Source: Clostridia bacterium (GTDB lineage: Bacteria > Bacillota > Clostridia > Christensenellales > UBA1242). Taken from it: 51,576 nt of DNA. The stretch lies in contig JAGBBH010000079.1 of the NCBI GenBank assembly GCA_017938505.1, positions 1-51,576 of the forward strand. The letters are read 5' to 3'. A program made the position numbers and the translations under genes. The notes under the pieces are model-generated. The model ran no database searches and had not been told where the DNA came from. It worked only from the letters and a program-made list of their open reading frames with translations. This document shows positions 9,617-41,060 of this stretch, one piece after another. How positions within the stretch are numbered: the stretch's first letter is position 1; each line of letters opens with the position of its first letter.

Positions 9617-9640
9617 TCAATCAAGAAAAGGAGGATAAGA

Positions 9641-13140: not shown

Positions 13141-13181
13141 ATAAATAAAAAAGGTTTGAAAACATCAAACCTCTATTTTTT
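13141..13181. terminator. Bidirectional rho-independent terminator
   Basis: Perfect 8-bp stem AGGTTTGA/TCAAACCT (13152-13172) with a 5-nt loop. An A-run lies upstream and a T-run downstream. It abuts the TAG stop of the minus-strand gene. Confidence 0.75.
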
Positions 13182-13871
13182 ATTATAAATATATCTTTTA
13201 CAATGCTCGCAAGTGATAAATGGCTGCTCTTTCAATTTTGAAATTGCCGCTTTTGGTTGCTCCATTCTACAATGTCCACAAAAAGCTCCGCTTTCTAAAG
13301 GCACAAAAACAGGAAAAATTTTATCATTTCTCTTTTTCTTATATTCTGCCAACAATTCTTGTTGAACGCTTTTCCCTAATTCTGCAAGCTCTTTTACCAA
13401 CTTTTCTTTTTCTGGGACCAAAACAGAATCTTCTTCAGTTATTTTCTTTTTGCAAACATTATAATCATTTCTGATTTTTTCATAAATATCTTTTGTTTTT
13501 TGATATTCTGTTACGATTCTGTTGATTCTTTCCGCTGCTTTTTGCAAAACCTTTTCCAATATGTTCAAGTTTGAAAATATTTTTGATTTTAAAACCGAAA
13601 TTTTTTCAAGTTCTCCCATAGAAAGACCTTCAATGTCTTTTCCCAAGATTTCTTCCGCTTTTGTCTTGTTGAGTTTATGCTTGCTTTTTATCTCTTCAAT
13701 TTCTGTAAGCAAATGTTCTGCATCTTCTTTAAGTTTCTCTGAAATTCTCTTGCTATTTTCAGCCTGAACCCTTAAAGCTTCTGCTTTTTTCTTATATGCC
13801 CCATTCGACATTTTTTGTTCAATTTTATAAAGTTGTTCGTCAAATTTTTGATATTTCAATAAATTTTCCAT
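13173..13871 (-). CDS. Coiled-coil protein with C4 zinc-ribbon (DUF164/COG1579 type), 232 aa
   Basis: A long K/E-rich coiled coil is followed by CGHC....(x17)....CEHC at the C-terminus. Confidence 0.7.
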   Translation of the reverse strand: MENLLKYQKFDEQLYKIEQKMSNGAYKKKAEALRVQAENSKRISEKLKEDAEHLLTEIEEIKSKHKLNKTKAEEILGKDIEGLSMGELEKISVLKSKIFSNLNILEKVLQKAAERINRIVTEYQKTKDIYEKIRNDYNVCKKKITEEDSVLVPEKEKLVKELAELGKSVQQELLAEYKKKRNDKIFPVFVPLESGAFCGHCRMEQPKAAISKLKEQPFITCEHCKRYIYNKK

Positions 13872-16993: not shown

Positions 16994-19900
16994 TTATTTG
17001 TTCATTCTGCCAACAAAACGACCAGTCTTCTTTTTGCGGTAGAACCAAACAAATGCCACCACTCCAAAAATTGCAACCGCACCAGACCCGAAAGCAATAA
17101 CGACATTTTCATTACCCTGTCCTTCGCTTGCACTTTCCGCAGGCGCCGCCTTATATGTAAAATATCCAGGACTGCCCGCAGCATCAATCCTCGCATATGT
17201 CGCATCTGTGTAACTTGAATTAAATGCAGTTCCATTTCCACCAACTAAGGCTTTAGTAGATTGAAACATCTGTATTGATTCTGTAACGGCAGAAATCGAC
17301 CATTTGTCAGAGACATATATTGTTCTTAAAGACGAACAACCAGAAAACATATATCGCATATTTGCAACATTTGAAGTATCAAAATTTGACAAATCTAAAC
17401 TTGTTAAAGATGAACAAAAATTAAACATATAACCCATATATGTAACATTTGAAGTATCAAAATTTGACAAATCTAAACTTGTAAATCTATAGCAACCAGA
17501 AAACATACTTCTCATGTCTGTAACTTTTGAAGTGTCCCATCCTGATAAATCCAAACTTGTAAGTTCCATCTTTCCCATAGCAGCTCCAAATACAGTGACC
17601 ATATTTATCACATTTGAAGTGTCAAAGTTAGAAACATCTAAACTTGTTAGTTTTACACAATTACTAAACATAAGACTTATATCTATCGCTTTAGAAGTGT
17701 CAAAATTAGAAACATCTAAACTTGTTAAACTTTGGCAATTATAAAACATTGAAGACATGTCTATTACATTTGAGGTGTCAAAGTTAGAAACATCTAAACT
17801 TGTTAACTTTTGGCAACTATAGAACATTCCATACATATCTGTTACATTTGAAGTATCAAAACTAGATATATCAAGACTTGTCATTGACTTGCAATACATA
17901 AACATATGTTTCATATTTGTAACTTTAGAAGTATTAAAAGTTGACAAGTTTAAACTAGTTAAAGCATGTTGAAGCCCCAAAATTGATGTTGTAGAAGAAG
18001 TTGCCGCAAACATAAATTCCATATTCGTAGCGTTTGAAGTATCAAAATTGTAAAACTCAATTGCCGTTACCGCCCAAAAAGCGTATAAAGCATAAGAAGC
18101 GTCAACAAGTGCCATTTTCTTGTTTGAAAGCACATAGACCGTTGTGCATCCAGCCCCATAGATTTTTGCCATACCGCTTTCATCTGCAGTCGCATCAACA
18201 CCTGCCAACCCAGAAATAACATTTTCCCCATCTACATAATAAACTTCTTCAGCAGTTTTGTTTCCATTTTCATTGCGATAAAAATCAAACACGATTTTTT
18301 GTGCAGCCTTATCTACCGTCGTATATTCACTCACATTCTTCATAAGCGCATTTAGTTCTTTCCCTGCTTTAAGAAAAACAGGATACTTGTCTGCAATATC
18401 TGTAAAATATCCAGGAAGACCATCTTTGCCGTCAATCCTCGCATAACTCGCGTCTGTGTAACTATCACTATATGTCGTCCCATTTCCACCAACCAAGGCA
18501 AAGCAAGCATCAAACATTCCGTACGAACTCGTAACAGCAGAAGTTGTCCACTTATCCGAAACATAAACAGTTTCCAACAAACAACTATATCCAAACATAT
18601 AGTCCATATCACAAACATTTGAAGTATCAATCCCCGACAAATCTAATTCTGGGACATTCAAATCCGAGTTGACATAACAATATTTGATTGCAGATGCAAA
18701 CATAGAATTTAAATTTTTTACTGCTTTTGCCTTAAAACCACTTAAATTAAGTTCCACTGCTGCACCAACATGTCCACCAAACCAACTGAACATATAGGAC
18801 ATATCTTCCACTTTTGTCGCATCCAAATTCGAAAGGTTCGCATAAACTTTATCCCCATACACTTCATCTGCAAAGGATTCAAACATATGAGACATATTAA
18901 TCACATTTGAAGTGTCAAAACTTGAAATATCTGCCACAACATCACCTGAAGCCTCACTCTTACAATTAAACATATAACTCATATTGGTTGTCTTTGAAGT
19001 GTTAAAGTTAAAGAATGACTCTAGTGATTTTATTCCACCAAAATTTTGAAACATATAACTCGCATCTTCATTCATCATCATTTCTTTTGCAGAAAGAACA
19101 TAAACCGTTGCTCTGCCTGCGTTATAAATCAACGCCTCTCCATTCCCTCCAGCGGTTGCGTCAACCCCTGTCATTCCAGAGATAACATTCGTTCCGTTCA
19201 CATAATAAACTTTCGCTTGTGTTGTGTTTCCGCTTGAATCACGATAATAATCAAACACAATCTTTTGCACAGTCCTATTTGAAGTCGAATATGATGAAGC
19301 ATTTTTCATAAGGGCATTTAGTTCTTGCCCAGTTTTGAGAGCGACCTTATACTTTTCCGCAACATCGGTAAAATATCCAGGAAGACCATCTTTGCCGTCA
19401 ATCCTCGCATATGTTTTGTCTTTGTAACTTGAACTATATTTTGTTCCATTTCCACCAACCAAGGCAGAGCAACCATTAAACATATATGTTGAACTCGTAA
19501 CTGCAGAAGTCGTCCACTTGTCTGAAACATATACAGTTTTTAGATATCGACAATTTTGAAACATATATGTCATATTTGTAACTTTTGAGGTATCAAAACT
19601 TGATAAATCCAAACTTAAATTTGTTGCACTATATCCGCAAGATTGAAACATATATCTCGTATATGTTACACTTGATGTGTCAAAACTTGACAAATTCAAA
19701 CTTAAACTTGTTGCACTATATCCGCAACATGAAAACATAGACCCCATATCTATAACTTTTGCTGTATTAAAACTTGACAAATCCAAACTTAAATTTGTTG
19801 CACTATATCCACAATAATAAAACATAGACGACATATTTGTTACACTTGATGTATCGAAACTTGACAAGTCCAAAGTAAAATTGCTTGCACTATATCCACA

Positions 19901-21667
19901 ATATGAAAACATATTTGACATATTTGTTACACTTGATGTATTGAAATGCGAAATATCCAGTATAAAGTTTGAACTATTATATCCACAACATACAAACATA
20001 CCTTCCATACTGGTTACACTTGATGTATCAAAACTTGATAGGTCTAACTCAAAACTTGTTGCACTATATCCGCAATATAAAAACATAGACGACATATCTG
20101 TTACACTTGAAGTGTCGAAACTTGTCAAATCTAAATTGAAACTTGTTGTCCACTCACCACAAGAAGTAAACATATTTGACATATTTGTAACGCTTGATGT
20201 GTCCCAACCCGAAAGATTTAAACTACCTCCAAACCGCCAACCGCTAAACATCTTTGTCATATTTGTCATACCTGAAACATTCCAACTAGATAAGTCGAGT
20301 TGATTGATGCCACAATTTCCAAACATCTCCTGCACCGAGGCTTTCACAGTCCAGCCAGAAAAGTCTAATGAATTTAACAACACAGTACTACCAAACATAT
20401 AGTCCATCGTCGTTACTTTTTCAACATTCCAATTTGAAACATTAAGGCCTACAAGGTTTCTTGAACCAAAAAACATACCACTCATATCAGTTACATTTGA
20501 GGTGTCAAAACTTGTTAAATCCAAATTAAGCGACGGATTCTCGTTGTCATATTCGCCACAATAAGCAAACATATATGACATATTTGTCGTTTGTGAAGTG
20601 ATAAGGTTGTTAAAGACCGCAGAACCCAACCAATAAAAACCATAGAATGTGTAAGACAAATCTCTCGCCGTTATTTCGCTTAATGACAAAACATAAATTG
20701 TCGAAGTCCCCGCACCATACAGCATTATTTTTCCCGCCTCATCAACATCAACAGGAGTCCCCGACAATCCAGCAATAAGGTTTGTTCCATTTGGAGCATA
20801 CTGTCCTGATGCTGTGTAATAATCAAAAATAATTGAAGTTGTTACCGAATTTTTGACTGTATAATCATCAGCATTTTTCATAAGCGCATTGAGTTGTTGT
20901 CCTGTCTTCAAATATGCAACATTTGCTGGTGCAAGCACTGAATAAGAAAGTCTAACCCCGCAAGATGAGGTGAGATATCTGTTTCTTGCAATGCCTGTGC
21001 TTGTTATGTATGTTGCGTTGTTGATCGTTGTCAAATCTCTTGTCCAATAGTCGCAATATTGCGTGTTAGAAATTCCTGCCATCATACAAACCAAATCGCT
21101 TGCATACGCAACCTTGCTCGTGAAGTTTTCATTAAGTTCATCTTGCGAAACTTGATAAACTCCTGTTGTGGTTATGTTTTCAGATTTCACTGCAATGTTT
21201 GTTCCGTCTGCGTTGAAATAGTCAAACTCTCTTTCAACCTCTGCGGCAAAATTAATTTGACAAGATTCATTTCCAAAGTTCGTGTTATATGCCAAATATT
21301 GTGCACTGTCAGAATATTTCCAGCCTTCGCTTACACTTCCACTTGCAATTGCACCCCAGTCCAAAACCACATCTGAAACCGCTGTCTTTACAACATCTTC
21401 AGTTCTTGAACTTGGAATAATGCTGTCCCTTTCACTTTCTGCAACTCCAAAATCACTCAATCGCCAGCGGATTGGTTCCAACTTATACCAATAAAAACTG
21501 CCAGCAACAAAATTTACACTCGTTCCATCCAATGAAACAGAAACACTCTTTGGTGCTGTCAGTTTTAAATATTCTTCATCGTTATATGTATATACCCCAT
21601 ACAAATTTCCAGCAACAGTCAAAGAATATTGCACAGAAAGTCCTGCAGAGTTTAATGTTGTGTTCAA
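16994..21667 (-). CDS. Giant BspA/DUF285-type leucine-rich-repeat surface protein with C-terminal TM anchor, 1557 aa as tracked
   Basis: There are dozens of 24-26-aa repeats of the form L.LS.FDTS.VT.M..MF..C. Three modules each start with LK(T/A)G.ELNALMKN and end with YVSDKW..SAVT....MF......LVGGNGT....SY.D..YARID...(L)PGYFT. The C-terminal hydrophobic segment VVIAFGSGAVAIFGVVAFVWF is followed by YRKKK. The tracked TTG start has no RBS or signal peptide. The same frame stays open upstream to 21865. Confidence 0.85.
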   Translation of the reverse strand: MNTTLNSAGLSVQYSLTVAGNLYGVYTYNDEEYLKLTAPKSVSVSLDGTSVNFVAGSFYWYKLEPIRWRLSDFGVAESERDSIIPSSRTEDVVKTAVSDVVLDWGAIASGSVSEGWKYSDSAQYLAYNTNFGNESCQINFAAEVEREFDYFNADGTNIAVKSENITTTGVYQVSQDELNENFTSKVAYASDLVCMMAGISNTQYCDYWTRDLTTINNATYITSTGIARNRYLTSSCGVRLSYSVLAPANVAYLKTGQQLNALMKNADDYTVKNSVTTSIIFDYYTASGQYAPNGTNLIAGLSGTPVDVDEAGKIMLYGAGTSTIYVLSLSEITARDLSYTFYGFYWLGSAVFNNLITSQTTNMSYMFAYCGEYDNENPSLNLDLTSFDTSNVTDMSGMFFGSRNLVGLNVSNWNVEKVTTMDYMFGSTVLLNSLDFSGWTVKASVQEMFGNCGINQLDLSSWNVSGMTNMTKMFSGWRFGGSLNLSGWDTSSVTNMSNMFTSCGEWTTSFNLDLTSFDTSSVTDMSSMFLYCGYSATSFELDLSSFDTSSVTSMEGMFVCCGYNSSNFILDISHFNTSSVTNMSNMFSYCGYSASNFTLDLSSFDTSSVTNMSSMFYYCGYSATNLSLDLSSFNTAKVIDMGSMFSCCGYSATSLSLNLSSFDTSSVTYTRYMFQSCGYSATNLSLDLSSFDTSKVTNMTYMFQNCRYLKTVYVSDKWTTSAVTSSTYMFNGCSALVGGNGTKYSSSYKDKTYARIDGKDGLPGYFTDVAEKYKVALKTGQELNALMKNASSYSTSNRTVQKIVFDYYRDSSGNTTQAKVYYVNGTNVISGMTGVDATAGGNGEALIYNAGRATVYVLSAKEMMMNEDASYMFQNFGGIKSLESFFNFNTSKTTNMSYMFNCKSEASGDVVADISSFDTSNVINMSHMFESFADEVYGDKVYANLSNLDATKVEDMSYMFSWFGGHVGAAVELNLSGFKAKAVKNLNSMFASAIKYCYVNSDLNVPELDLSGIDTSNVCDMDYMFGYSCLLETVYVSDKWTTSAVTSSYGMFDACFALVGGNGTTYSDSYTDASYARIDGKDGLPGYFTDIADKYPVFLKAGKELNALMKNVSEYTTVDKAAQKIVFDFYRNENGNKTAEEVYYVDGENVISGLAGVDATADESGMAKIYGAGCTTVYVLSNKKMALVDASYALYAFWAVTAIEFYNFDTSNATNMEFMFAATSSTTSILGLQHALTSLNLSTFNTSKVTNMKHMFMYCKSMTSLDISSFDTSNVTDMYGMFYSCQKLTSLDVSNFDTSNVIDMSSMFYNCQSLTSLDVSNFDTSKAIDISLMFSNCVKLTSLDVSNFDTSNVINMVTVFGAAMGKMELTSLDLSGWDTSKVTDMRSMFSGCYRFTSLDLSNFDTSNVTYMGYMFNFCSSLTSLDLSNFDTSNVANMRYMFSGCSSLRTIYVSDKWSISAVTESIQMFQSTKALVGGNGTAFNSSYTDATYARIDAAGSPGYFTYKAAPAESASEGQGNENVVIAFGSGAVAIFGVVAFVWFYRKKKTGRFVGRMNK
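17325..18050 (-). repeat. Array of ~72-75-nt coding repeats (LRR units, module 3)
   Basis: Successive near-identical units encode LTSLD(V/L)SNFDTSNV..M..MF..C. Confidence 0.8.
19538..20620 (-). repeat. Array of ~78-nt coding repeats (LRR units, module 1)
   Basis: About eight highly similar 26-aa units (LDLSSFDTSSVT.MS.MF.YCGYSA(T/S)..S) occupy ~19538-20170. More divergent units continue to ~20620. Confidence 0.8.
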
Positions 21668-24714: not shown

Positions 24715-25008
24715 ATGTCAAAATCATCTAAAAGATACATATTTTTGGCAATCATCTTCAGTTTGGTTACAATTACTTTTACATTGCTTTATCGCTTTAA
24801 GGTTGTAGCAAGAATGGATTTATATTTGGCAGTTACTTATGTTACATACTTCGTTGGAATCGCCTTGCTTTATAATGGCGCATATGTGAGAGAACACGGC
24901 CACACAACATCTACTGGCATCAACTTTGGTTTTGGAATTTTGTTTATCATTGCCTCAACCGTAATGTTGGTTTATGGTTTAGTAACAGGCATAATTCTTT
25001 TGTTTTAA
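24715..25008 (+). CDS. Small membrane protein (3 predicted TM), 97 aa
   Basis: GGAGGAA RBS, three hydrophobic segments, and a terminator downstream. No family recognised. Confidence 0.55.
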   Translation: MSKSSKRYIFLAIIFSLVTITFTLLYRFKVVARMDLYLAVTYVTYFVGIALLYNGAYVREHGHTTSTGINFGFGILFIIASTVMLVYGLVTGIILLF

Positions 25009-25068
25009 ACAACAACCAAATTTTTAAAAACACCAATTAAAAAAACTTTAAATATTCAACAAAAAAAA

Positions 25069-25093
25069 AGACTGAATTTATCAGTCTTTTTTA
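25069..25093. terminator. Bidirectional terminator between convergent genes
   Basis: Stem AGACTGA/TCAGTCT (7 bp) with a 5-nt loop. A9 lies upstream and T6 downstream. Confidence 0.7.
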
Positions 25094-25110: not shown

Positions 25111-27636
25111 CTAATTGCTCAATCTCTTGATTTCATCAAGCAAACTTTCGAGTTTAGAGTTAATTTCTGCAATTTTCTTTTCAGATTCGTGTTTTGCAAT
25201 AACTGCTTGTGCTTCTTTTTGAAGAACATCAATTTGCTCAATGAGTTCTTCTCTTCTTGTTTGCTTGTCATCAACAGATGCCAAATCCATTTCTTTCATT
25301 GCACTTTCAAGTTCTTTGTTCAAAGCCGCCCTCATTTTGTTGAGTTTTGCTTCTTCTTCTGAAAGTTTTTTGTTGATTTCAACAATTGAGTCAAGTTGTT
25401 TTTTTGGTCTTCCTCTGCCTCTTTTTTCTTGAACGACAGACTCTTCGACCTTAACGATTTTCTTTGGTCTGCCAGCTTTTTTCTTTGGCGCCGGCTCTGC
25501 CACTGAAGTTGATTGAACAATCTTTCTTGGTCTGCCAGGACGCTTCTTTGGAGTTTCAGCTGCAACCTCTTGTTTTGGTTCTTCAACCTTTTCTGCAACA
25601 ATCTTTCTTGGACGACCTCTGCCCTTCTTCTCTTCAACTGGAGCTGTTTGAGCTACAATCTTCCTTGGTCTGCCAGCCTTTTTCTTTTCTGCAACTGGTT
25701 CTTCTTGAACAATCTTTCTTGGTCTGCCAGGACGCTTCTTTGGAGTTTCGACCACAACCTCTTGTTTTGGCTCTTCAACTCTCTTTGTTTCTTTTTTAGG
25801 TTCGTCTAAAGAGAATTCTTCAAAACCATCATCTAAATCTAATGTTTGAGCAACTTCTTCAGGTTTAATCTCTTGAGGTTTTTCTTCTGAAACATTTTCT
25901 TCATTATCGCTTGCGTTTGCAAATTCAATTTCGTTGTCTTTATCAACATCTTTAATTATGTTTTCAGCAACCCCATATAAATCATCTTTTTGTGAAACAT
26001 CAGTAATGAAATCAAATTCATCAAAATCTTCAAAATCCACAACCTTCTTTTCTTCTTGTGGTTCAACAGTTTGAGCTTGCAAAATCAAGGTTCCGTCTTG
26101 AGAATAAACATTTCCTTCAGCATCATGGAAGTTTCCTTGTGGGTCATAGTAAGTTCCATTTGGATAAACATAGTTTCCAAGTTCATCATATTGCCCTTCA
26201 GCATTTGAAACATCTTCAACCACTTCGTTTCCTTGAGAGAGTGTTTCCATATTTGCCGCATCAAATTCGCCTTGTGGAACATTTTTAAGTCTAATTTCAA
26301 GTTCTGTGATATATTGCTTGTTTTGTTCGTTTTCTGCTTTCAATGCTTCTATCTTATCATTGAAAACCTTTGCAACAACCTTTTCTGCACTTTGACAGAA
26401 TCTATTAAAGAAGGTTTGATATTCACCAATCATACCGTTTTCAACATCAGCCTTGAATGTTTCCAACTCTTGATTGAGTTTTGCAATTTCTTCTTCGCCC
26501 TCTTTCTTTTCAAGCAAATATTTTGCTCTTTGTTGTTCAAATTCTTGTTCAAGTTGTTCTTGTTTTGCAACTTCTTGTGTTTGTTGCTTACGATAATAGT
26601 TACTTTCAATTCTGTTTGTTGTTTCTTCTTGCATTTGACGAAGTCTAACAATATTTTCTTTAGATGCTTGAATTTTTGTTTGAGAATCTTTTTGGACCAT
26701 ATCAAAGTTCTTTCTTCTCGAATCAAGTTCCGCTTCCAATTGAGAAACCTTAACCAAAATCTTTTCTTTCTTTTTCAAGAACAATTCGCTTTCTCTCATT
26801 GCTCTTTCAAGAACAATTGAGCCATCGACACCTGTTGATGAAAAATCGTAAACCTCGTGATTGATTTGTTCTTCTTTTGCTTTGTTGAACTCTTCCTTTT
26901 CTTTCCTTGCTTTATAATCCAAGAATTCACGAAGAACTGGTTGTCCCTTTTCAATTTCTTCAGGAGTAAACAAAATTTGATAGTCAATATATGTTGGCAA
27001 ATCAAGGCAAGCATTGTCCATAAATCTTCCAAACAAAGACACATTTTGATAAAGCGAATTCAAGATAGCGTTTTTTCTTGCTCTGAGGAATGCTACAAAA
27101 ATTGAAGAAATGATAACAATGAAAATTGGAACCATAATTGAAAGCACAATGCCGTTACCGGTCAAATAGTCAGTAAAGCTCGTAAGCATCAAAATGAACA
27201 TAGCCACAACAAACGCCCAAATGGTTGAAAAAAGTCCAAGGTTCTTTATGTTAGAGTTGTAAGAACTTGTCTTTAAAGGTTTTTCAACAAGGTTATCCGT
27301 TGAAAGATAAGTCGATGGAGCCCCTTCTCTGAACAATATGTATTGTTGCCAATAATAGCACAGCCTCTTTGGCGCTTTGGTTTTGAAAAGAAAGTTAACA
27401 TCTTTGATGTTTTCCTCCGTTACAACCTTTTGGTCAAAAAGCCAATAGTTAATTTTGTCCAAGGCACGATTCAAGGACGCCTCATAGGAAAATGATGATT
27501 TCACAAGGAAGAAAATCACCAATAAGATTTCCACACCAAGTGCGATAATAAATAACATATCAAAACCAATCAAACGAACAAGGTCTGAGAAGAATGATGC
27601 AATACTATCGACAATACTACACATTGTAGAAAACAT
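25111..27636 (-). CDS. Membrane-anchored coiled-coil protein with six C-terminal AT-hook motifs, 841 aa
   Basis: AGGAGG RBS. Three TM segments lie at aa ~24-46, ~133-155 and ~162-186. K/E/Q-rich heptad-like regions span aa ~230-440 and ~760-841, with an acidic linker between. There are six (K/R)n-x-GRP(R/K)K motifs: KKRPGRPRKIV, KKKAGRPRKIV, KKGRGRPRKIV, KKRPGRPRKIV, KKKAGRPKKIV and KRGRGRPKKQL. Confidence 0.8.
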   Translation of the reverse strand: MFSTMCSIVDSIASFFSDLVRLIGFDMLFIIALGVEILLVIFFLVKSSFSYEASLNRALDKINYWLFDQKVVTEENIKDVNFLFKTKAPKRLCYYWQQYILFREGAPSTYLSTDNLVEKPLKTSSYNSNIKNLGLFSTIWAFVVAMFILMLTSFTDYLTGNGIVLSIMVPIFIVIISSIFVAFLRARKNAILNSLYQNVSLFGRFMDNACLDLPTYIDYQILFTPEEIEKGQPVLREFLDYKARKEKEEFNKAKEEQINHEVYDFSSTGVDGSIVLERAMRESELFLKKKEKILVKVSQLEAELDSRRKNFDMVQKDSQTKIQASKENIVRLRQMQEETTNRIESNYYRKQQTQEVAKQEQLEQEFEQQRAKYLLEKKEGEEEIAKLNQELETFKADVENGMIGEYQTFFNRFCQSAEKVVAKVFNDKIEALKAENEQNKQYITELEIRLKNVPQGEFDAANMETLSQGNEVVEDVSNAEGQYDELGNYVYPNGTYYDPQGNFHDAEGNVYSQDGTLILQAQTVEPQEEKKVVDFEDFDEFDFITDVSQKDDLYGVAENIIKDVDKDNEIEFANASDNEENVSEEKPQEIKPEEVAQTLDLDDGFEEFSLDEPKKETKRVEEPKQEVVVETPKKRPGRPRKIVQEEPVAEKKKAGRPRKIVAQTAPVEEKKGRGRPRKIVAEKVEEPKQEVAAETPKKRPGRPRKIVQSTSVAEPAPKKKAGRPKKIVKVEESVVQEKRGRGRPKKQLDSIVEINKKLSEEEAKLNKMRAALNKELESAMKEMDLASVDDKQTRREELIEQIDVLQKEAQAVIAKHESEKKIAEINSKLESLLDEIKRLSN
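25398..25779 (-). repeat. Tandem duplication (~192 nt x2), each copy encoding three AT-hooks
   Basis: VEEPKQEVVVETPKKRPGRPRKIVQ...KKKAGRPRKIV...GRGRPRKIV is followed directly by VEEPKQEVAAETPKKRPGRPRKIVQ...KKKAGRPKKIV...GRGRPKK. Long identical nucleotide stretches are visible, for example around 25511-25556 and 25707-25750. Confidence 0.8.
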
Positions 27637-27941: not shown

Positions 27942-27975
27942 AAAAAACAAGGAAGTCAAAACTCCTTGTTTTTTC
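27942..27975. terminator. Bidirectional terminator downstream of addA
   Basis: Stem AACAAGGA/TCCTTGTT (8 bp) with a 9-nt loop, with an A-run and a T-run on either side. Confidence 0.7.
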
Positions 27976-28037: not shown

Positions 28038-31000
28038 CTATTTTACCTCTATCAACTTACTGTTTTTAAGAGAAAGCAAATATGCATTCTTTACAGGAAG
28101 GTTAAAAAAGTTTTCTAGTGCCCCCTTATAAAGTTTTATTTGCCCCTTGTATGTATTTAACAAATATTCTTCACTGTTTGAATTTGAATATTTATAATCA
28201 ACCAAAACAATCTCATCTTCTTGCACGACAAAAAAGTCAACCACCCCTTGAACAATGACTTCTTCATCAACTTGACAGCCATCTAAAAGATTTGAAAGTT
28301 TGTCTTTCATAATAAATTCTTTTTCTTTAACAACTTTTCCCGTTTCCACAAATTTCTTCAAAAGCAAAATGTTTTTCAAAAGGGTTTCTTTATCTAAAAA
28401 TTCTTCAGCATCTCCCAACAGCTCTTTGTTGTTTTCGAGTTCTGCCAACAACTCTTGCATATTTCCAATTTTTCCAAACGGCAATATCTTCAATGCCAAG
28501 TGGTAAGCATTTCCAATTTCGACACCTGCACCAGAAAAAGATATTTCTTGATTTGAATATTTTTGCAGAATATCTTCTTTGTTCTTGTTATTCAGAGATG
28601 TAACACTTTCTTTCAGTCTAAAATTGTCGCTTTGTTCAAAGTCATATTTAAAATTCAAATATTCTTCCATTTGTTTCACAAGTTTAGGGTCATTTGTAAT
28701 TTTTCCATAAATTTCCTTTGCAACACTTTGCTCTTCTACAACATTCTCAATTTTAACAATCTCAATCGTATCTGTTTCATAAAAGTCTTTTTCAAGAAGC
28801 AGTTCTTTGGCTTTTGGAAGTGCAAAGAATACAAAATCAAAATATGTCTTACAACTCAAAATGTTTTGCTTTTCAAATATTGATTTTTTAAAATCGCCAA
28901 ACAAATATAATCTATTTTTTGCACGAGTTAACGCAACATAAAAAATCATAAGTTCTTCTGCAAATTTTTTTTCTTGTTCTCTCTTGTTGATTGCCTGCAT
29001 CTTAATGGTTACATTTTCTTTGTTTGTCAAACTATCATAATTCTTTACAGAGAAGCCAAACTCCTCATTAATTTCAACATAACCCTTTTTATATGGGTCT
29101 TTCATCAAATCCTTTTCGCACCCAATTAAAAAAACAATTGGATACTCAAGACCTTTGCTGTTGTGAATTGTAGTCAACAAGATTGCATCATCCTCAATTG
29201 TTGATTCAGTAGAAACTGAAATTTGAATATTTGAAAAATAATCAACAAGTCCAGACAAATCGTTGTCAAACCCACTTGCAGAAATTTCTTCCAAAAATTT
29301 GTCAACAAACAGATTTAATTTTTCATTTTGTTCATGCAAATTTAAATAAGCCCTATAATTTGTTTCATTAAAAAATTGCAAAAATGCGTGTTTTATTCCA
29401 AAAAAAACAATATTTTCTTTAAATTTTTCTAAATTTTTATTAAATTTTGAAAAAACTTCGTTTTTGTCTTTTTTGACAAGTTCGCACAAAGTCCCTTTTT
29501 CACCACTTTTTTCATTAGCAATTTTCTCAAACGACATGCCACCCAAAGGAGAAATTAAAACACTTAAAAGAGAAATGTCGTCTTCCATATTTAATGCAAT
29601 TTTAAGGCAATCAACAAGAACCTTGATTTCAGGCTCATCAAACATGTTGTTTTTTGAATTAGAAATCACTGGCACACCATTTTGTTGCAAATAAATTGCA
29701 AGTTCATCAAAAAAATCATCTCTCGTCCTTGCCAAAATTGTTATGTCGCTATATCTACAATCTCTCAAAACACCTTTATCAGATATTTTTGAGGACATAA
29801 CTTCAACAATTCGCCTTTTGACATCTTTTAGTTTCTTCTCAAACTTATTTTTCTTCTTGTTACAGTCTTGCTTCACACTATATAAGTAAGGCAATGGAAT
29901 TTCTTTTTCTTCATCTTCTTCAACCAAATCTATATAAACCGCTTTGGCAGGCTCATCAACAAATTTTGACCGCCCCTCAAGCATAGAAGTTGCCAAATAG
30001 TCAATTCCCGTTGTTTGTTTTGTCATACAAACTTTGCAAACATCATTTACAAAACCAAGAACCTTTTGACTGCTTCTAAAGTTCGACTTCAAACAATTAA
30101 CTTGCGAATCTTCATTTAAAGAAAACTCTTCCATATCTTTTAAAAATATTTCCGCGCTGGCATTTCTAAAACCATAAATTCCTTGCTTTGCATCTCCTAC
30201 CGCAACAAAATTGCAGTTTTTTGCAACATTTTTTACGATTTTTTCTTGAATTTTGTTTGTGTCTTGATATTCATCAATAAAAACATATTTGACAGACGAG
30301 AATAAATTTTCTTTTTCTGACAATTTTTTCATATAAAATTCAAGGTCTGCAAAAGTTAGGACATTTAGATTTCTCTTTATCTTACTTAACTCTTCTTGAT
30401 AAATTCCAAAAAACTTGAGCAACACTTTTTCAAGTTTCGCTTCCTTCTGTTTTTCGACATTCTCCAAGTCGTCAAGTTTCAATTTTTGCAAATCGTCCTT
30501 AACATTGGCTATCATTTTCTTTACGGCTTCAAGTCCTGCGAAAGCCTTTTCGCCAATTTGTTCCTTGTTTGGCCTTCTCGGAAATTTAAACGCTTTAAAC
30601 ATTTCACACATTTCGCCCAATGTTTTAGCACTCAATATTATGTCAGCCTGTTCTTTCAGTGCAAGATAAAAATCAAAAACATTAATTTTTTCACAATCCT
30701 CAAGCGCACATACAATGCGTCTCTTTGAACTTTCAAACAAAAACCCTAAAGCTTTGTTAAAATACACATCACTATCATCTAAATTCTTTTTAACAAACGC
30801 TTCTTTATCTGCAAGCGATTGTAGCAAATTGTCGATTTCAAGAAGTATTTCTCTGATTTTATTTTTATCATTCTTAAAATTTGACAACAAAAACAGACAC
30901 TCTTCTTCATTTGATGCATAAAAAGTCTTTATTGTCTTTTCAAACGCCTCCAAAGAGAGTTTTTGAGAATAATTTTCATCTAAAATCTCAAAACCTGCAG

Positions 31001-31397
31001 ACAAACCAACCAAATTCGCATACTTTTTTAAGCATTTTTCACAAAAAGCATCAATTGTGCAAATATTTGCCGTTGACAGTGCATCAATCTGCTCCAACAC
31101 AAATGCGTCATTGCCTTTGCTTTTTAATTGCTTAAGCAACCTCTCTTTCATCTCCGTTGCTGCAGCTTTTGTAAAAGTTAACACCAATAAATTATTTACA
31201 GAAACATTTCTTTCGCATATAAGGTTTGAAATATACTCTATCATAATATGCGTTTTACCACTTCCTGCTGAAGCACTTACTAGCATATTTTTCTTGGTGT
31301 TTCTTAAAACTTCTTGTTGTTCTTCAATGATTTGCTTCTCTTCTTTTGTTTCTACCACACCAACTTCGACTTTTTGATTTTTCAACTCTTTCATCAT
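28038..31397 (-). CDS. addA: ATP-dependent helicase/nuclease AddAB, subunit A
   Basis: UvrD-type motifs are present: SASAGSGKTH, FIDEYQDTN and a TIHNSKGLEYP-like motif. The C-terminal RecB-type nuclease reads GVVDFF....EIVLVDYKYS. It overlaps addB by 4 nt. Confidence 0.9.
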   Translation of the reverse strand: MMKELKNQKVEVGVVETKEEKQIIEEQQEVLRNTKKNMLVSASAGSGKTHIMIEYISNLICERNVSVNNLLVLTFTKAAATEMKERLLKQLKSKGNDAFVLEQIDALSTANICTIDAFCEKCLKKYANLVGLSAGFEILDENYSQKLSLEAFEKTIKTFYASNEEECLFLLSNFKNDKNKIREILLEIDNLLQSLADKEAFVKKNLDDSDVYFNKALGFLFESSKRRIVCALEDCEKINVFDFYLALKEQADIILSAKTLGEMCEMFKAFKFPRRPNKEQIGEKAFAGLEAVKKMIANVKDDLQKLKLDDLENVEKQKEAKLEKVLLKFFGIYQEELSKIKRNLNVLTFADLEFYMKKLSEKENLFSSVKYVFIDEYQDTNKIQEKIVKNVAKNCNFVAVGDAKQGIYGFRNASAEIFLKDMEEFSLNEDSQVNCLKSNFRSSQKVLGFVNDVCKVCMTKQTTGIDYLATSMLEGRSKFVDEPAKAVYIDLVEEDEEKEIPLPYLYSVKQDCNKKKNKFEKKLKDVKRRIVEVMSSKISDKGVLRDCRYSDITILARTRDDFFDELAIYLQQNGVPVISNSKNNMFDEPEIKVLVDCLKIALNMEDDISLLSVLISPLGGMSFEKIANEKSGEKGTLCELVKKDKNEVFSKFNKNLEKFKENIVFFGIKHAFLQFFNETNYRAYLNLHEQNEKLNLFVDKFLEEISASGFDNDLSGLVDYFSNIQISVSTESTIEDDAILLTTIHNSKGLEYPIVFLIGCEKDLMKDPYKKGYVEINEEFGFSVKNYDSLTNKENVTIKMQAINKREQEKKFAEELMIFYVALTRAKNRLYLFGDFKKSIFEKQNILSCKTYFDFVFFALPKAKELLLEKDFYETDTIEIVKIENVVEEQSVAKEIYGKITNDPKLVKQMEEYLNFKYDFEQSDNFRLKESVTSLNNKNKEDILQKYSNQEISFSGAGVEIGNAYHLALKILPFGKIGNMQELLAELENNKELLGDAEEFLDKETLLKNILLLKKFVETGKVVKEKEFIMKDKLSNLLDGCQVDEEVIVQGVVDFFVVQEDEIVLVDYKYSNSNSEEYLLNTYKGQIKLYKGALENFFNLPVKNAYLLSLKNSKLIEVK

Positions 31398-34300
31398 TTT
31401 TTCCTTTTTAAATTTTCATCATCAACACTTTGCATCTTTCTGACTACCCCACTTTCTCTGTGTTGACAAACCGCCATATAAGGACACCACTTACACATTC
31501 CATCTAAAGGTTTTGCTTCAATATAACCAGACTTAATTTCATCAACAGCAACCTCGGACACCTCTTTTGCATAATCAATTAAATCCTCTAGTTTTTCCGT
31601 CAAACAACTTCCTCTATAACCAAAAGGCTTTTCCTGAGTCGGTTTGTTATGCTGAACTCCAAGGACATCACTTTTAAAACCAATTTCCTCCAAACGATAA
31701 TCCGTTTTCAAAATTGCTTTTTCATCTTTAGTTATTAGTCCATTTAAATGTTTTTTCGCTTCATCTTGCTTGCCATATTTTGTTTGGCAATCAAAATAGA
31801 AAACTCCAGCACAGTCCAATCCTGTTTTTTGTTTTATTGCGCCTGCATATAAAAACAACTGCAATTTCTTGCCATAAAACAAATCTTTTCTAACATTGTC
31901 TGTTTCTCCAGTTTTATAGTCTATAATTCTAAAATAATTATCAGACTTATCTACCCTATCAACAATACCAGAAAGATTTGAATTTGAAAAATAAGGTCCA
32001 AAAACACTTTTTTCAAGCAAAAATGGCCTGAAATCGCTAATTTTTTGCTCATTTTTTGCATTTTTTAGAATTATTTTGCTTTCATTTCTTAAATAATTTA
32101 CAAAATATTTTCTATCAAGAATTTTTTTATCGTAAAATCGATTTGCATATTTACTTACAAACTCATCAACAAAGCCATCTATGTCTAACCGTTCTCGATC
32201 TTCTGTAGAAAAATAGTGTTCCAATAATAAATGTTGAAAACTTCCAAATTGCATTTTTGTCGGTTCAATGTTTTGAAGTTCTTTAACCCCCAAAACATAT
32301 TTTACAAAATGCATAAATGGACACTTAAAATAGGTTTCCAATTGCGACGCAGACACCTTGCTTACTTCAAACAAAGATTGATTTTTCTCTCCTATGGAAA
32401 AATTGGTAAGAGTTTCTCGTTTTGGAACTGAATTGTTTACAAGCACTTTTAATGCATCGGAAAATTTTTGAGCAATTTTGTTTTTTCCTTGCAAATAAGT
32501 ATAGCTTTGCAAAAGATTCTTACTGCCACCAACAAAAAATAACAATCGTTTGAGAAGTTCTTCTTCTGACATACTTTCATCATCACAATCTTCAATTGTC
32601 ATTGAATGAACAACATTTTTTCCAAACATTTTTTGTAAATCTTCAATTATTGATGATTTTTGCATAAGTTGCCCCCCATCTTGCAAAGGGTAACTTACAA
32701 TCAAATTTGAATTCGCGTGTTGAAAGAGTTCAAAAACTTTAAGACGATTTCTTCTGTTAAGAACCTTAATTTCAGGTTCAATCTTTATGTTCAAGGACAA
32801 CTTCTTTATATCTTCGTCATCAATAATTCCAATATCACTTCTATTTTTAGGCAATGCATTTGCCGTTGCCCCCAAAACGCACAATGTGTTAACATCAGAA
32901 AAATAACTGCTTGTCGCATCACCAACAAACACCGCATCAATATATGTAGGAATTGTTTCAACTTTGACCGCTTGCAAAGAAACGGTTAACAATTTTTCAA
33001 AATCAGAAAGTTCAAAAACCTCATCTTTTCCAAGGAGAGAAAGTTTATCAAGAACTCTTTCCACCAGCTCAAACGCTTGAACATTTTCACTTTCTTTTTG
33101 AAAATTATTGCATTTTTTAAGTTTGTTTGACAATAAATCATAATTTTTCTTATTTTTTTTCAATATTTCTTGCAATTTTTCACAATAATTTGAAATTTCT
33201 TTGCATTGCAAAAGATTTTTTATGTCCTCAACAATATCTTTATAATCTGGATTTCTTTCAACAAACTCAACCTCATCTTGCACATTATAATGTCTTATTT
33301 GCGACAAGATTTCCTCTTGAGAATTTTCATTTAAAATTAAAGAATTTGCCAAAAATTGCAAATTTTCTTGCGTAAAACCAATTTTTGAAATGTTTATAAT
33401 CTTCAATAAAAACTTTCCTAAAATTGTTTGCGAAAGGTCTGTTGCATCATCACAGTAAAAGGCTATGTCATATTGTGCAAAGATAGTTTTAATTTCTTCA
33501 TAATAACTTTTGTCCGAAACCGCAATGGCAAAGTTTTTAAATTTTTCTCCACTGAAAATTTGATATCTGATATATTTTGCGACAAACTCAACCTCATCTT
33601 TTTTGTTTTTTGCAATCAGACATTTGAAAAAATCATCTTGCCCGTTCTCTATGTCAAAACCAAAAAGATTTTTGACGATTTTTAACTTGTTTCCAGACAA
33701 CCCACTCTTTGGGTTTACAACCTCAACAACAACCCCATTATCCGCTGCGAATTTTTTTGTTTTTTGAAAAATGTCATCTTCATAAATAAAAGCATTATTT
33801 TGCGAAATTGGTTTTGCATAGCCAATGTATATTTGATTGACATATTTTGCAAGCTGACAGACAAAGGAATTTATTTCAGTTGAAAAACTATCAAAATTTA
33901 CAAAATATAGGTTTGTTTTTGACAAATTTACCTTTTCCTCTAAATTTTCCACAAAAAATTGCAAAAGACGAGATAGGTCAAACTTGCTCTCAAGCAATTG
34001 TTCATATCTCTCATAAATATTTTTTAAGTCAGACATCTTATTGTCTAACAGTTCATCTCCAACACTTTTAATGTGCGATGGCAAAATTTTGCACGCCTTA
34101 AACTGTTTTACAATTTGCAAAATTTGAATACATAAATCAACTCCACACTTTTTGAAGTATTTGAAGTTTGTTTCTTGCTCTTTGATTGCTTTAAATATGC
34201 AAAAAATTTCTTCAATCCCACTCACTCTTTCAAATTGCACATTGTTTCGTTTTAAAAGTTTGCTTGCAAGTCTTGAAATCCCAACAATTTCAGTGTTGAA

Positions 34301-34468
34301 TGTTGCTTTTTGTTTAAGCACATCAAAAACAAGACTTTCTGCCTGCATAGAAAAACTATCTGGAACAACAATCAAGTTTTCCTTGTCAAAATCTTTAAAA
34401 TCTACATATTCAAGCACATTTTTCGCCGCCTCAAATGCCGTGGCCCCCGTTACAATTTTGATTTTCAT
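31394..34468 (-). CDS. addB: ATP-dependent helicase/nuclease AddAB, subunit B (Fe-S type)
   Basis: C-terminal nuclease IIDYKTG. The four-Cys cluster is KCPF ... CKWCPYMAVC. The N-terminal Walker A is degenerate (IVTGATAFEAAK). Gene order is addB then addA. Confidence 0.85.
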   Translation of the reverse strand: MKIKIVTGATAFEAAKNVLEYVDFKDFDKENLIVVPDSFSMQAESLVFDVLKQKATFNTEIVGISRLASKLLKRNNVQFERVSGIEEIFCIFKAIKEQETNFKYFKKCGVDLCIQILQIVKQFKACKILPSHIKSVGDELLDNKMSDLKNIYERYEQLLESKFDLSRLLQFFVENLEEKVNLSKTNLYFVNFDSFSTEINSFVCQLAKYVNQIYIGYAKPISQNNAFIYEDDIFQKTKKFAADNGVVVEVVNPKSGLSGNKLKIVKNLFGFDIENGQDDFFKCLIAKNKKDEVEFVAKYIRYQIFSGEKFKNFAIAVSDKSYYEEIKTIFAQYDIAFYCDDATDLSQTILGKFLLKIINISKIGFTQENLQFLANSLILNENSQEEILSQIRHYNVQDEVEFVERNPDYKDIVEDIKNLLQCKEISNYCEKLQEILKKNKKNYDLLSNKLKKCNNFQKESENVQAFELVERVLDKLSLLGKDEVFELSDFEKLLTVSLQAVKVETIPTYIDAVFVGDATSSYFSDVNTLCVLGATANALPKNRSDIGIIDDEDIKKLSLNIKIEPEIKVLNRRNRLKVFELFQHANSNLIVSYPLQDGGQLMQKSSIIEDLQKMFGKNVVHSMTIEDCDDESMSEEELLKRLLFFVGGSKNLLQSYTYLQGKNKIAQKFSDALKVLVNNSVPKRETLTNFSIGEKNQSLFEVSKVSASQLETYFKCPFMHFVKYVLGVKELQNIEPTKMQFGSFQHLLLEHYFSTEDRERLDIDGFVDEFVSKYANRFYDKKILDRKYFVNYLRNESKIILKNAKNEQKISDFRPFLLEKSVFGPYFSNSNLSGIVDRVDKSDNYFRIIDYKTGETDNVRKDLFYGKKLQLFLYAGAIKQKTGLDCAGVFYFDCQTKYGKQDEAKKHLNGLITKDEKAILKTDYRLEEIGFKSDVLGVQHNKPTQEKPFGYRGSCLTEKLEDLIDYAKEVSEVAVDEIKSGYIEAKPLDGMCKWCPYMAVCQHRESGVVRKMQSVDDENLKRKK

Positions 34469-37191: not shown

Positions 37192-37317
37192 AGGCACCTC
37201 CTTAATTAATGTGTGCAAAGCACTCACTTATATTCTTATTGTAAATGAAGCAGAAACAAAAAATCAAACAATTTTGAAGAAAAATTTTTTATAGCCTCGA
37301 TTTTTTTGTTAAAGTCC

Positions 37318-37809
37318 CTAAACTCGAACAACATATAAACTTACTAAACTAAATGTAGCATTTTGTTCGCCAAGGTCCACAATTTCTAGTATTGAGCCCT
37401 CCACAATGCCAAATAAAACAGTTTGCGACAGGTTTTTAACCTCTCCACTTTGGCCACTTTGAACCAATCTTGTGCCGGCAATCTCCTGACCATTAAGGCG
37501 AAGCCCAACCGAAATCTCTCCATCTTCTAAAAGTCTTCCTTGTGCAAAATAGGTTATTTGATATGTTCCCGCACTTAAAAGCACTCCGCCAGCTGAAGTC
37601 GAACTAACTCCTGCCCCTTGCGACATAACCGCTACAAGCGGAATGCTTTCATTTTGCGAATAAGTTGCAATTGAGGTGTTGTTAAAAAAACCAAAACTGC
37701 CTTGCACAACAGGATTGACAACTTCATTTTTAGAACATTCCAACCTTTGACAACAAAATATTGGTCTTGGATGATTTCTACAACAACAGTTAACTTTTCT
37801 TTGAGGCAT
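37318..37809 (-). CDS. C1q/TNF-like beta-sandwich protein (BclA C-terminal-domain-like) with Cys-rich N-terminus, 163 aa
   Basis: The start was moved to ATG 37809, which has GGAGAA upstream. The N-terminus reads CCCRNHPRPIFCC. The body matches the BclA-C-like pattern (IPL......G.GV.......VLLSAGTYQITY....... ISVGLRLNGQEIAGT.......LSQTVLF....GSILEIV). Confidence 0.5.
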   Translation of the reverse strand: MPQRKVNCCCRNHPRPIFCCQRLECSKNEVVNPVVQGSFGFFNNTSIATYSQNESIPLVAVMSQGAGVSSTSAGGVLLSAGTYQITYFAQGRLLEDGEISVGLRLNGQEIAGTRLVQSGQSGEVKNLSQTVLFGIVEGSILEIVDLGEQNATFSLVSLYVVRV

Positions 37810-38156
37810 AATATTTCTCCACAGCAATCAAAAGGTTGCCTTATTATATAATACTAGCAATCCAATAATTTTGACACAGTTTTTGAATTTTCAAAATAAG
37901 CACAAATTCTTTATATTTTGACGAAATTCAACATTTTATATAACATAATGTTTATTAGAAGTTAAAATATGGATTTTCTAAGCTGTAATATTTTTTTAAA
38001 GATTTACTGAAAATATATAATTTTAATTGTCTTTTATTCAAATTCTTTGCTATAATAACAGTCGAGATTGCATAGTGTTTATTTTTAAACTTTTCTTTCG
38101 TTGTTTTTAAATTTACACTACTCAAAGCAACCTCTTTTTAAATTTTAGGAGTTGTA

Positions 38157-38984
38157 ATGATAAGAATTTTTGTTGACTCATGTAGCAGTATAAAACAAAC
38201 TGAAAAAGAAAAATATGGAGTTGAAATCATTCCTCTTCGATATTTGATGGGCGAGGTTGAATATAGAGATGACATCGACTTGTCCATTGACGAATTTTAT
38301 AAACTTATGATTGAAGAAAAATTGTTCCCCAAAACCTCGCTGCCAGAACTTTCTGAACTTGAAACAAAGGTTAATTCTTTCACAGAAAATGGTGATGATG
38401 TGCTTATAATCACCCTCTCATCGAACCTTTCAGGAACTTACAGCGCAATCAGCACGCTTTTTGGTGAAAACAAAAAAGTTGCTGTAATAGATTCTCTCAC
38501 AGCTGTTGGAGGTATGAGAATCTTGGTTGAGGAAGCAATCAAAAACAAAGACAAACCCTTGTCGGAGATTGTTGAAATTTTAAATGCTCTCGTTCCAAGA
38601 ATTAAGATTCTTGCAATCCCAGAAACTCTAGCTTATTTGCACAGAGGTGGAAGACTTTCCAAAGCAGACTATTTGCTTGGAAGCATTTTATCAATTAAAC
38701 CCGTCATTTCTCTGCCTAATGGTTCCGTTAAGGTTTTGGCAAAGAAAATTGGACTTAAGGCATCTATGAGTTATATCGCTAATTGTTTAAAAACTATGAA
38801 ATGCGATAAAAACTATCCTATCATTCCAAGTTACACATATAAACCTAACAATCTGGAAAAACTAATTGAAATGACTGACAAAGCATTTCACCCTCAAATG
38901 ACTGAATTTGACAATCTTGACCCAGTTATCGCTTGCCACTGGGGACCAAATGCATTTGGCTATATCTTTGTAAGTAAGGAGTAA
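38157..38984 (+). CDS. DegV family fatty-acid-binding protein, 275 aa
   Basis: Family motifs are I.VDS.S .....I.IPL, TS.P, LSS.LSGTY and RGGRLSKA. Confidence 0.85.
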   Translation: MIRIFVDSCSSIKQTEKEKYGVEIIPLRYLMGEVEYRDDIDLSIDEFYKLMIEEKLFPKTSLPELSELETKVNSFTENGDDVLIITLSSNLSGTYSAISTLFGENKKVAVIDSLTAVGGMRILVEEAIKNKDKPLSEIVEILNALVPRIKILAIPETLAYLHRGGRLSKADYLLGSILSIKPVISLPNGSVKVLAKKIGLKASMSYIANCLKTMKCDKNYPIIPSYTYKPNNLEKLIEMTDKAFHPQMTEFDNLDPVIACHWGPNAFGYIFVSKE

Positions 38985-38991
38985 TTTACCA

Positions 38992-39870: not shown

Positions 39871-39887
39871 ATTTAATAAATTTTTTA

Positions 39888-39918
39888 AAGATGCTTACAA
39901 AAAAGCGTCTTTTTCTTT
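39888..39918 (+). terminator. Rho-independent terminator
   Basis: Stem AAGATGCTT/AAGCGTCTT (9 bp including one G-T pair), followed by TTTTCTTT. Confidence 0.55.
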
Positions 39919-39939
39919 CAATTTGACAATAATTCCCCC

Positions 39940-39968: not shown

Positions 39969-40000
39969 GAAATTAATTATAAAAATTTTAGGAGAATCAA

Positions 40001-41050: not shown

Positions 41051-41060
41051 AAAAAATTAA

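Follow-up and report, generated by a model that had tools for sequence, protein, structure and literature searches.

The window analysed here is the whole 51,576-nucleotide stretch of Clostridia bacterium contig JAGBBH010000079.1, and the subject is a minus-strand gene (X below) that lies directly downstream of addB and addA. The product is an 841-residue protein in which a membrane module, whose fold is probably closest to that of the Zorya motor protein ZorA, is joined to a coiled-coil stalk and an array of AT-hooks. The surroundings are those of a housekeeping region, with rpoD, dnaG, addB, addA, recO, a two-component system and tRNA synthetase genes, and the genome is AT-rich (GC ~0.32). 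Pfam identifies addA and addB upstream of X, which the preliminary description of this DNA (a model's reading of the letters) had placed next to addAB. The layout of the locus is as follows (aa, amino acid positions in the X protein; nt, nucleotides; TM, transmembrane).

31394-34468, minus strand: addB, conserved upstream partner (Pfam; addB and addA together 28038..34468)
28038-31397, minus strand: addA (Pfam), directly upstream of X
27942..27974, minus strand: terminator-like hairpin following addA, within the 401 nt between addA and X
25111..27636, minus strand: whole gene X (841 aa, ATG start), encoding in order a putative ZorA-fold membrane module, coiled-coil stalk, beta-hairpin repeats, acidic linker, AT-hook array and C-terminal helical module
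27085..27636, minus strand: aa 1-184, extracytoplasmic N-terminal helix, TM1 (27-47), cytoplasmic loop (48-132) and TM2-TM3 hairpin (133-184)
26824..27084, minus strand: aa 185-271, very conserved membrane-proximal cytoplasmic segment after TM3
26281..26823, minus strand: aa 272-452, coiled-coil stalk
26092..26199, minus strand: aa 480-515, beta-hairpin repeats
25747..26091, minus strand: aa 516-630, acidic (D/E-rich) linker, largely disordered, varying in length and sequence
25393..25746, minus strand: aa 631-748, AT-hook array, six hooks within a 64-aa tandem duplication
25114..25392, minus strand: aa 749-841, C-terminal module
25064-25092, both strands: bidirectional terminator-like hairpin, 19 nt past the stop codon of X

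The gene had been taken to be monocistronic, with its own promoter and terminator. The terminator half of this agrees with the hairpins found after addA and after the stop codon, whereas a consensus scan of the 401-nt addA-X gap gave no strong −35/−10 pair, and the sole promoter-like element there, recognized by eye, is an extended −10-like sequence (TGTTATACT). Because a hairpin follows addA and the gap is 401 nt long (unusually long, the range in relatives being 88-318 nt), X may be transcribed alone in the window. Rfam gave no RNA element within this long intergenic region, and a strong AGGAGG lies 7 nt upstream of the ATG of X. The bidirectional hairpin is shared with a convergent gene (24715-25008, plus strand) for a 97-aa polytopic membrane protein of no known family, which occupies the same position in close relatives (98-99 aa in loci L001 and L002) and not in distant clades.

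Domain layout and likeness to ZorA

Three TM segments were placed at approximately residues 27-47, 133-152 and 163-184 by Kyte-Doolittle analysis, and the helices in two AlphaFold models agree with them, so that the arrangement of TM1, a loop of about 85 aa and a TM2-TM3 pair stands as first described. The loop (residues 48-132, 85 aa) contains 12 Lys/Arg residues, and R185, R187 and K188 come just after TM3; the positive-inside rule applied to this distribution predicts an N-out, C-in topology, with the loop and the C-terminal 650 residues in the cytoplasm. Invariant residues in the loop are E52, P89, W96, R103 and P120, while those conserved in the segment following TM3 (aa 185-271, part of the region matched to ZorA below) are A209, P214, D218, L222-F223-T224, E227-I228, P233, L235, F265 and G269. 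Beyond this segment the coiled coil, put at about 200 aa in the preliminary description, was found to span about 180 (272-451), modelled by AlphaFold2 (AF2) as two helices, 272-338 and 342-451, at a predicted local distance difference test score (pLDDT) of 85-97, with a conserved hinge motif (EETTNRIESNYYRKQQ) at approximately aa 337-352. The family-averaged hydrophobic periodicity of the stalk has significant components, at 3.52 residues in the first helix and 3.66-3.70 in the second (power 47-63, compared with 18+/-7 in shuffled sequences), and part of the stalk is hendecad-like, with a right-handed-type periodicity of 3.67.

The stalk is followed by the repeats EGQYDELGNYVYPNGTYYDPQGNFHDAEGNVYSQDG, conserved 7-residue units of Y/D/G/N modelled as short strands (pLDDT ~80), for which there is no matching Pfam family and whose copy number is very variable across the family. 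These 'YYDxxGN' units at the stalk end are reminiscent of YD repeats, and are multiplied in some members (P0173, P0189, P0147, P0160, P0233 and P0252). The D/E-rich spacer noted earlier is present as an acidic stretch that is disordered in the model (approximately aa 455-630). In the AT-hook array (pLDDT below 50) six GRP[RK]K motifs start at aa 637, 656, 674, 701, 722 and 742, and the two 64-aa tandem copies that carry them can be seen in the DNA itself, where 25496-25587 and 25688-25779 are 192 nt apart and 87% identical. This duplication is a recent lineage-specific change of copy number in a conserved array, not a strain-specific artefact. The final coiled coil of the preliminary description corresponds to three modelled helices (751-787, 790-814 and 819-840). 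Every element listed in that description was found at the positions it gave.

ZorA, the A subunit in the anti-phage motor ZorA5B2 of the Zorya system (PDB 8QYD among others), consists of TM1, a membrane-proximal cytoplasmic domain, TM2-TM3 and a long helical cytoplasmic tail (PMC11946911). An AF2 model of aa 1-460 of the X protein, built on the family alignment (mean pLDDT 90.6), was compared with the PDB using Foldseek, and the top four matches were all E. coli ZorA (E-values 7.6e-4 to 1.8e-3, probability 1.0; TM-score normalized to the target 0.47-0.52). The ranks that followed were nearly all TolQ, ExbB and Shewanella ZorA, and nearly all of the top 50 came from this one superfamily, although the TolQ and ExbB matches were weak (E-values 0.14-2, TM-score normalized to the target 0.35-0.49). 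An earlier, independent full-length model from a shallower alignment gave the same order. In a HMMER comparison of a profile of the N-terminal 300 residues with 177,635 PDB sequences only ZorA came near significance (E 0.028-0.22), in an alignment colinear from TM1 to past TM3 (profile 27-207 against ZorA 21-217, about 180 residues). Within it the invariant W96, R103-x3-P107-S108-x-Y110 and V-x-x-P120-L-x-T123 align with ZorA '...W...RATAPSASFFSEQQLVDIPLNT'. The same search with the full-length profile was set aside, as it returned only coiled-coil noise (KIF21A and designed helical bundles). Profile-profile comparison with hhalign gave 70% probability and an E-value of 4e-5 over 66 columns; because the ZorA sequences retrieved with a 110-aa ZorA segment were fragments of only 81-188 aa, this small ZorA profile spans only pre-TM2 to TM3. 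Among 35 diverse members one matched the PADLOC ZorA1 models (E 0.019), the window protein itself being unmatched.

Taken together these comparisons give us good confidence that the N-terminal module has the A-subunit fold of the 5:2 ion-driven motors and is closest to ZorA, with which it shares an identical topology (N-out, TM1, cytoplasmic domain, TM2-TM3, cytoplasmic helical tail after TM3), the W...R-x3-PS...V-x-x-P-L-x-T motif before TM2, the right-handed-type 3.67 periodicity in part of the tail and a linkage to DNA-acting proteins. With ExbB and TolQ it shares three TM helices, the first followed by a large cytoplasmic loop, and the weak fold matches given above; those proteins have neither a long tail nor a DNA-binding region, and the TM2-TM3 region that is the hallmark of their family (PF01618) is the least conserved part here. 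The suggestion of a MotA/ZorA-like tailed protein, which its author had called weak, has gained real support from the fold, profile and hhalign comparisons and is the best supported of the structural statements. The cue on which it had leaned, the resemblance of the TM2 string LGLFSTIWAF to TolQ, has not: the string is confined to the close clade, and we discarded it as a family signature.

The X protein is nevertheless not a member of ZorA or of MotA/ExbB. The TM2 motif GIIGTFxGL, invariant in the ZorA fragments, is absent from its family, and the position of ZorA Thr147, which with TM3 Ser184 contacts ZorB Asp26 (PMC11946911), aligns to A141, where 60% of members have Ala and 18% have Ser/Thr. 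Nor is there a counterpart of the Zorya-type beta-hairpin with its Ca2+ site (E86/E89; definitions in PMC11946911 and PMC12505986), as the aa 1-460 model contains no strands and the hhalign alignment has a gap of about 17 residues. The helical tail is about 180 aa compared with about 500 aa in ZorA, and it continues into the beta-hairpin repeats, acidic disordered linker, AT-hooks and C-terminal module. ZorA is encoded in mobile defence islands, mostly Gram-negative, whereas X is a core chromosomal gene of monoderm Clostridia. Its neighbours are addB, addA, recO and a radical SAM gene, without ZorB or the Zorya effectors (ZorC/ZorD, ZorE, ZorF/G) beside it. No gene like that of ZorB, a protein with a single TM helix, an essential Asp and a peptidoglycan-binding domain, and no MotB-, ExbD- or TolR-like gene was found in the 51.6-kb window or within +/-8-10 kb in loci L001-L062, in keeping with the earlier remark that no such partner is adjacent, and the addA-X gap holds no conserved small open reading frame (ORF): those seen there either begin at Met codons within addA and encode the AddA C-terminus, or are not conserved. 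The convergent 97-aa ORF was also considered as a B subunit and rejected, being polytopic, kept in close relatives only and not MotB/ExbD-like.

Distribution, tails and gene order

A word-indexed search found 547 relatives, and the best 120 of the 547, which were looked at in detail, are unnamed full-length proteins of 58-98% identity encoded by 'Candidatus Caccovivens', 'Clostridia bacterium' and similar metagenome-assembled genomes. Searching exhaustively with HMMER and a profile built from aa 1-283 extended the family to 214 clusters at 50% identity, all from uncultured Clostridia (187 at E<=1e-10), in nearly all of which the entire module is matched at the N-terminus of a protein of 650-1400 aa. 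The taxonomy of the distant clades is given only as 'Clostridia bacterium'. A scan of genome contigs by exact peptide patterns, which picked up only close relatives (62-78% identity), found the gene in 49 species-level genomes. There is no curated family for the full protein in Pfam, NCBIfam or PADLOC, the sole match being a sub-threshold AT_hook, and family members in the databases are all unnamed hypotheticals.

Conservation was compared across 95 diverse members, in which the TM helices are lowest (mean top-residue frequency 0.33-0.37) and the cytoplasmic loop and post-TM3 segment highest (0.55-0.60). Within the TM helices Pro170 of TM3 is the sole conserved feature (94%); in TM2, 61% of members have Ser/Thr at positions 137 and 144. 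In 60 of 114 representatives, from hook-bearing and hookless clades alike, the protein ends in a detectable C-terminal helical module of about 88 aa. The conserved core thus consists of the membrane module at the N-terminus and the stalk, often joined by the C-terminal module, and the region between them is a fast-evolving, predicted disordered linker that in most clades carries what by its composition is a classical DNA-binding low-complexity tail. Two members extend these outlines: P0222 has a sub-threshold match from TM2 to the start of the stalk (E 3.6e-7, 30.9 against 33.5 bits) to Pfam UPF0242, a chlamydial TM plus coiled-coil family that may be a further remote relative, and in P0212 the stalk is fused to a DUF1538 membrane domain, which may be an artefact of gene calling or assembly.

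The hooks are not peculiar to one strain, as all 120 close homologues have them (3-8 copies each; for many of these PF02178 matches are precomputed), and so do 52 of 114 full-length distant representatives (up to 11 per protein). In many hookless members Lys-rich, histone-H1-like repeats (KKPAxKK, AKKP, SKKT) take the same position, and one of these, P0152, has a weak Pfam HC2 match. By charge, a basic 60-aa window (net +12 or more), usually preceded by an acidic one, is found in 69 of 115 representatives, so that a basic tail is not a universal trait. Myxococcus CarD is an example of a bacterial AT-hook protein. With the AT-hook proteins at large (PF02178, including eukaryotic HMGA) X shares repeated GRP cores, Lys/Arg flanks, disorder and an adjoining acidic region; it differs in that the hooks sit on an integral membrane protein and that, across the family, the array is interchangeable with H1-like Lys repeats. 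The histone H1-like and chlamydial Hc2-type tails rich in Lys, Ala and Pro (PF07382, HC2) resemble the repeats of the hookless members; such a tail is absent from the window protein itself and is relevant only as a sign that tail chemistry, rather than motif, is conserved.

The survey of homologues for conserved neighbours that had been proposed for this protein was carried out on the 58 loci with enough upstream DNA, and in 57 of them addA is directly upstream on the same strand. This adjacency holds in clades only ~30% identical in the N-terminal module, in which the other neighbours are wholly different (radical SAM/CNNM, Band_7 plus DUF1858, or TyrS). The addB-addA-X order is conserved family-wide, is the strongest contextual clue to function and is not a coincidence of position, and the gene is a core, vertically inherited one, not a defence-island gene. 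A second recurring neighbourhood was also seen: in four loci from distant clades (L055, L056, L060 and L061) the gene is followed by a convergent gene for a protein of about 230-255 aa (faint PRC-barrel match in L060 and L061, no Pfam match in L055 and L056) and then by Band_7_1 (flotillin/stomatin-like) and DUF1858, a setting that might relate to membrane organization.

Proposed function and its alternatives

As an AT-hook tail sits on a membrane protein that nearly always follows AddAB, X probably ties DNA to the membrane. The fuller reading that we favour, and hold with middling confidence, is that X is a ZorA-fold membrane anchor, probably pentameric and probably non-rotating, which tethers DNA and works with AddAB. 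The first ~270 residues, with the A-subunit fold, a periplasm-side N-terminus and a cytoplasmic C-terminus, would by analogy with other proteins of this fold probably form the pentamer, and the helices between 272 and 451 would bundle into a coiled-coil stalk reaching into the cytoplasm. Beyond the stalk the six AT-hooks of each chain, about 30 per pentamer, would be held on a flexible acidic linker that may shield or regulate the basic array; by binding the minor groove of AT-rich DNA non-specifically they would tether nucleoid DNA to the membrane. Partners may bind to the highly conserved stalk and to the conserved C-terminal module. For this partner or process, the linkage to addBA throughout the family points to AddAB-dependent processing of DNA ends at the membrane, where DNA, DNA ends or AddAB itself would be positioned for end-processing or degradation, in break repair or in degradation of incoming linear DNA. 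The 'membrane-DNA tether' of the preliminary description fits what the cytoplasmic tail, the disordered hooks and the H1-like replacements suggest; as a statement about the whole family it does not stand, since ~30% of representatives have no clearly basic tail. Bacterial membrane-DNA tethers include Noc, RacA-DivIVA and SpoIIIE/FtsK, which X resembles only in the proposed function of linking chromosomal DNA and the cytoplasmic membrane; it is unrelated to them in sequence and has no ParB-like, helix-turn-helix or FtsK domain, and the principles of anchoring and DNA binding differ.

A number of observations weigh against this reading and should be considered alongside the alternatives. The Foldseek TM-scores of ~0.5 are moderate, and all-helical membrane proteins can match spuriously; the sequence similarity to ZorA is weak throughout, with no match above any curated threshold, and Pfam MotA_ExbB (PF01618) matched neither any of the 35 diverse members (at E up to 10) nor the window protein. 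As regards the hooks, only two of the six have the canonical RGRP core (the other four have PGRP or AGRP), and the Pfam AT_hook (PF02178) score of the window protein is 13.1 bits where the cut-off is 17.4. Because ~30% of representatives have neither hooks nor a clearly basic tail, DNA tethering is not a universal function of the family core. In the gene order, one locus (L062) has its family member away from addA, elsewhere in the genome, the synteny could partly reflect vertical inheritance within one order, and in the window the terminator-like hairpin separates addA from X. Lastly, the linkage of A and B genes was tested in the window and loci only, and a B subunit could lie elsewhere in the genome.

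The last of these points bears on the possibility, which we think unlikely, that X is a working 5:2 rotary motor, a chromosomal monoderm relative of Zorya, with an unlinked or unrecognized B subunit in the pore of the pentamer. Ion flow would then rotate the tail, the hooks and C-terminal module would catch DNA that is incoming or broken and bring in or activate AddAB, and AddAB would be the functional analogue of ZorC/ZorD. That ZorA is the best match in both structure and sequence, that the long helical tail is ZorA-like down to its hendecad-like segment, that linkage to a helicase-nuclease is tight and that Pro170 and the Ser/Thr residues at 137 and 144 are retained as described above are all consistent with it, and in Zorya the tail does serve to recruit a DNA binder and a nuclease close to the membrane (PMC11946911). 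In known systems, however, the A and B genes are essentially always adjacent, with strong operon conservation (PMC12505986), and here no B-like gene or conserved small ORF was found in the regions searched. The invariant ZorA TM2 motif is missing, with mostly Ala at the Thr147 position, the modelled cytoplasmic domain has no Zorya-type beta-hairpin, the TM helices are the least conserved region and the context is core and vertically inherited, unlike that of defence islands. With no B subunit nearby, the 'stator-like channel' first suggested is not supported as a working motor. The free drift of the TM helices, the lack of a linked B subunit and the missing TM2 signature lead us to favour a static anchor over a proton-driven rotor.

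In a second alternative X is a membrane-anchored coiled-coil scaffold of the EzrA type, acting in division, the envelope or membrane organization, and its place beside addAB is merely inherited gene order; the basic tail would be no dedicated DNA tether but an accessory or regulatory linker with a polyanion such as RNA, polyphosphate or acidic lipids as its ligand, or simply a counterweight to the acidic linker. This alternative draws on the ~30% of representatives without hooks or a basic patch, which still have the membrane module and the stalk, and often the C-terminal module too, so that the core function would need no DNA-binding array, and on the apparently separate termination of X and addA in the window. 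That the cytoplasmic loop, juxtamembrane segment and stalk are the most conserved parts also suggests protein-protein interactions. We nevertheless consider it improbable, for AT-hooks and H1/Hc2-like Lys repeats, which are unrelated, occupy the same position in different clades, which argues for selection on nucleic-acid binding. The number of hooks is held at 3-11 despite rapid turnover, the adjacency to addA persists while all other neighbours change, and neither EzrA nor any other scaffold family in Pfam matches X.

It could also be that the resemblance to ZorA, TolQ and ExbB is convergent or spurious, and that X is a simple, perhaps dimeric, membrane-tethered AT-hook protein whose N-terminus is a three-helix anchor with a helical cytoplasmic insert unrelated to the 5:2 motors. 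The failure to reach a curated threshold, the modest TM-scores with root-mean-square deviations of 8-17 A and the missing TM2 signature would be expected if this were so, and other long helical proteins, Vipp1 and F-BAR, do appear in the Foldseek lists. We doubt it, since 3Di structure search, HMMER profile-against-sequence search and hhalign all single out ZorA from very large libraries, the alignment runs colinearly from TM1 past TM3 and includes family-invariant residues (W96, R103, P107/S108 and P120), the leading structural matches fall in one superfamily and the tail-after-TM3 architecture is that of ZorA.

As a more speculative extension of the anchor, to which we attach a low probability, X might descend from the Zorya sensor, or be its cousin, fixed in the chromosome and lacking a B subunit: a membrane pentamer that seizes DNA with its coiled-coil stalk and about 30 AT-hooks and hands it to AddAB. 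The DNA seized would be incoming phage or foreign DNA or broken chromosome ends, making this a housekeeping form of membrane-proximal DNA surveillance that would link the 5:2-motor architecture to RecBCD-type end processing.

Literature searches turned up no account of an orphan tailed protein resembling ZorA, of an AT-hook protein anchored in the membrane or of such a membrane protein linked to AddAB. X would thus represent an undescribed family that probably has the 5:2-motor A-subunit fold, closest to ZorA, but is B-less, core and fused to putative DNA-binding tails. Proteins of the A-subunit fold are best known from motility, envelope energization and Zorya defence, and to our knowledge those already described (MotA, PomA, ExbB, TolQ, AglR, GldL and ZorA) all work with a B subunit. 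If the reading of X as a DNA anchor is right, the fold extends to the handling of nucleoid DNA at the membrane and to monoderm bacteria, in which Zorya is said to be under-represented (PMC11946911). It would also provide a new candidate for membrane-chromosome tethering in the little-studied but abundant gut Clostridia, and suggest that AddAB acts at the membrane in the uncultured gut Clostridia that carry this family. The family is in addition a natural example of AT-hook and histone-H1-like tails swapped at one position, and may be a simpler system for the question of what the ZorA tail does, the putative DNA-binding element being fused to the tail instead of recruited.

Other features of the window

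The plus-strand region 709-10303 starts with tRNA-Ser(CGA) and continues with a block of genes of defence- or mobile-island type, which may be an uncharacterized defence island beside the tRNA; it includes Hypoth_Ymh, DUF5655, SMODS-associated NUDIX (Sa_NUDIX), PHP, TMEM164 and DUF4268 genes as well as those for an 871-aa ResIII/SNF2-like helicase and an HD protein. On the other side of addAB, a class II tRNA-synthetase gene that is beside recO in L001 and L002 lies about 12.7 kb from recO in the window, and the intervening plus-strand block (37300-49600) looks like a variable insertion, with two DegV genes, a response regulator/histidine kinase pair, DUF4271, holin-like and LOR protein genes and one for a PLD-type enzyme. 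A 1557-aa protein (16994-21667, minus strand) with ten DUF285 repeats plus leucine-rich repeats is probably a surface protein, of a kind common in Mollicutes-like and low-GC Clostridia. Just downstream of rpoD-dnaG is a gene (13173-13871, minus strand) for a 232-aa coiled-coil protein with a C4 zinc ribbon (Zn_ribbon_9) at its end; chlamydial CT398 (PDB 4ilo), which we take to be a member of the Zn_ribbon_9-type zinc-ribbon family, was among the weak fold matches of the X stalk.

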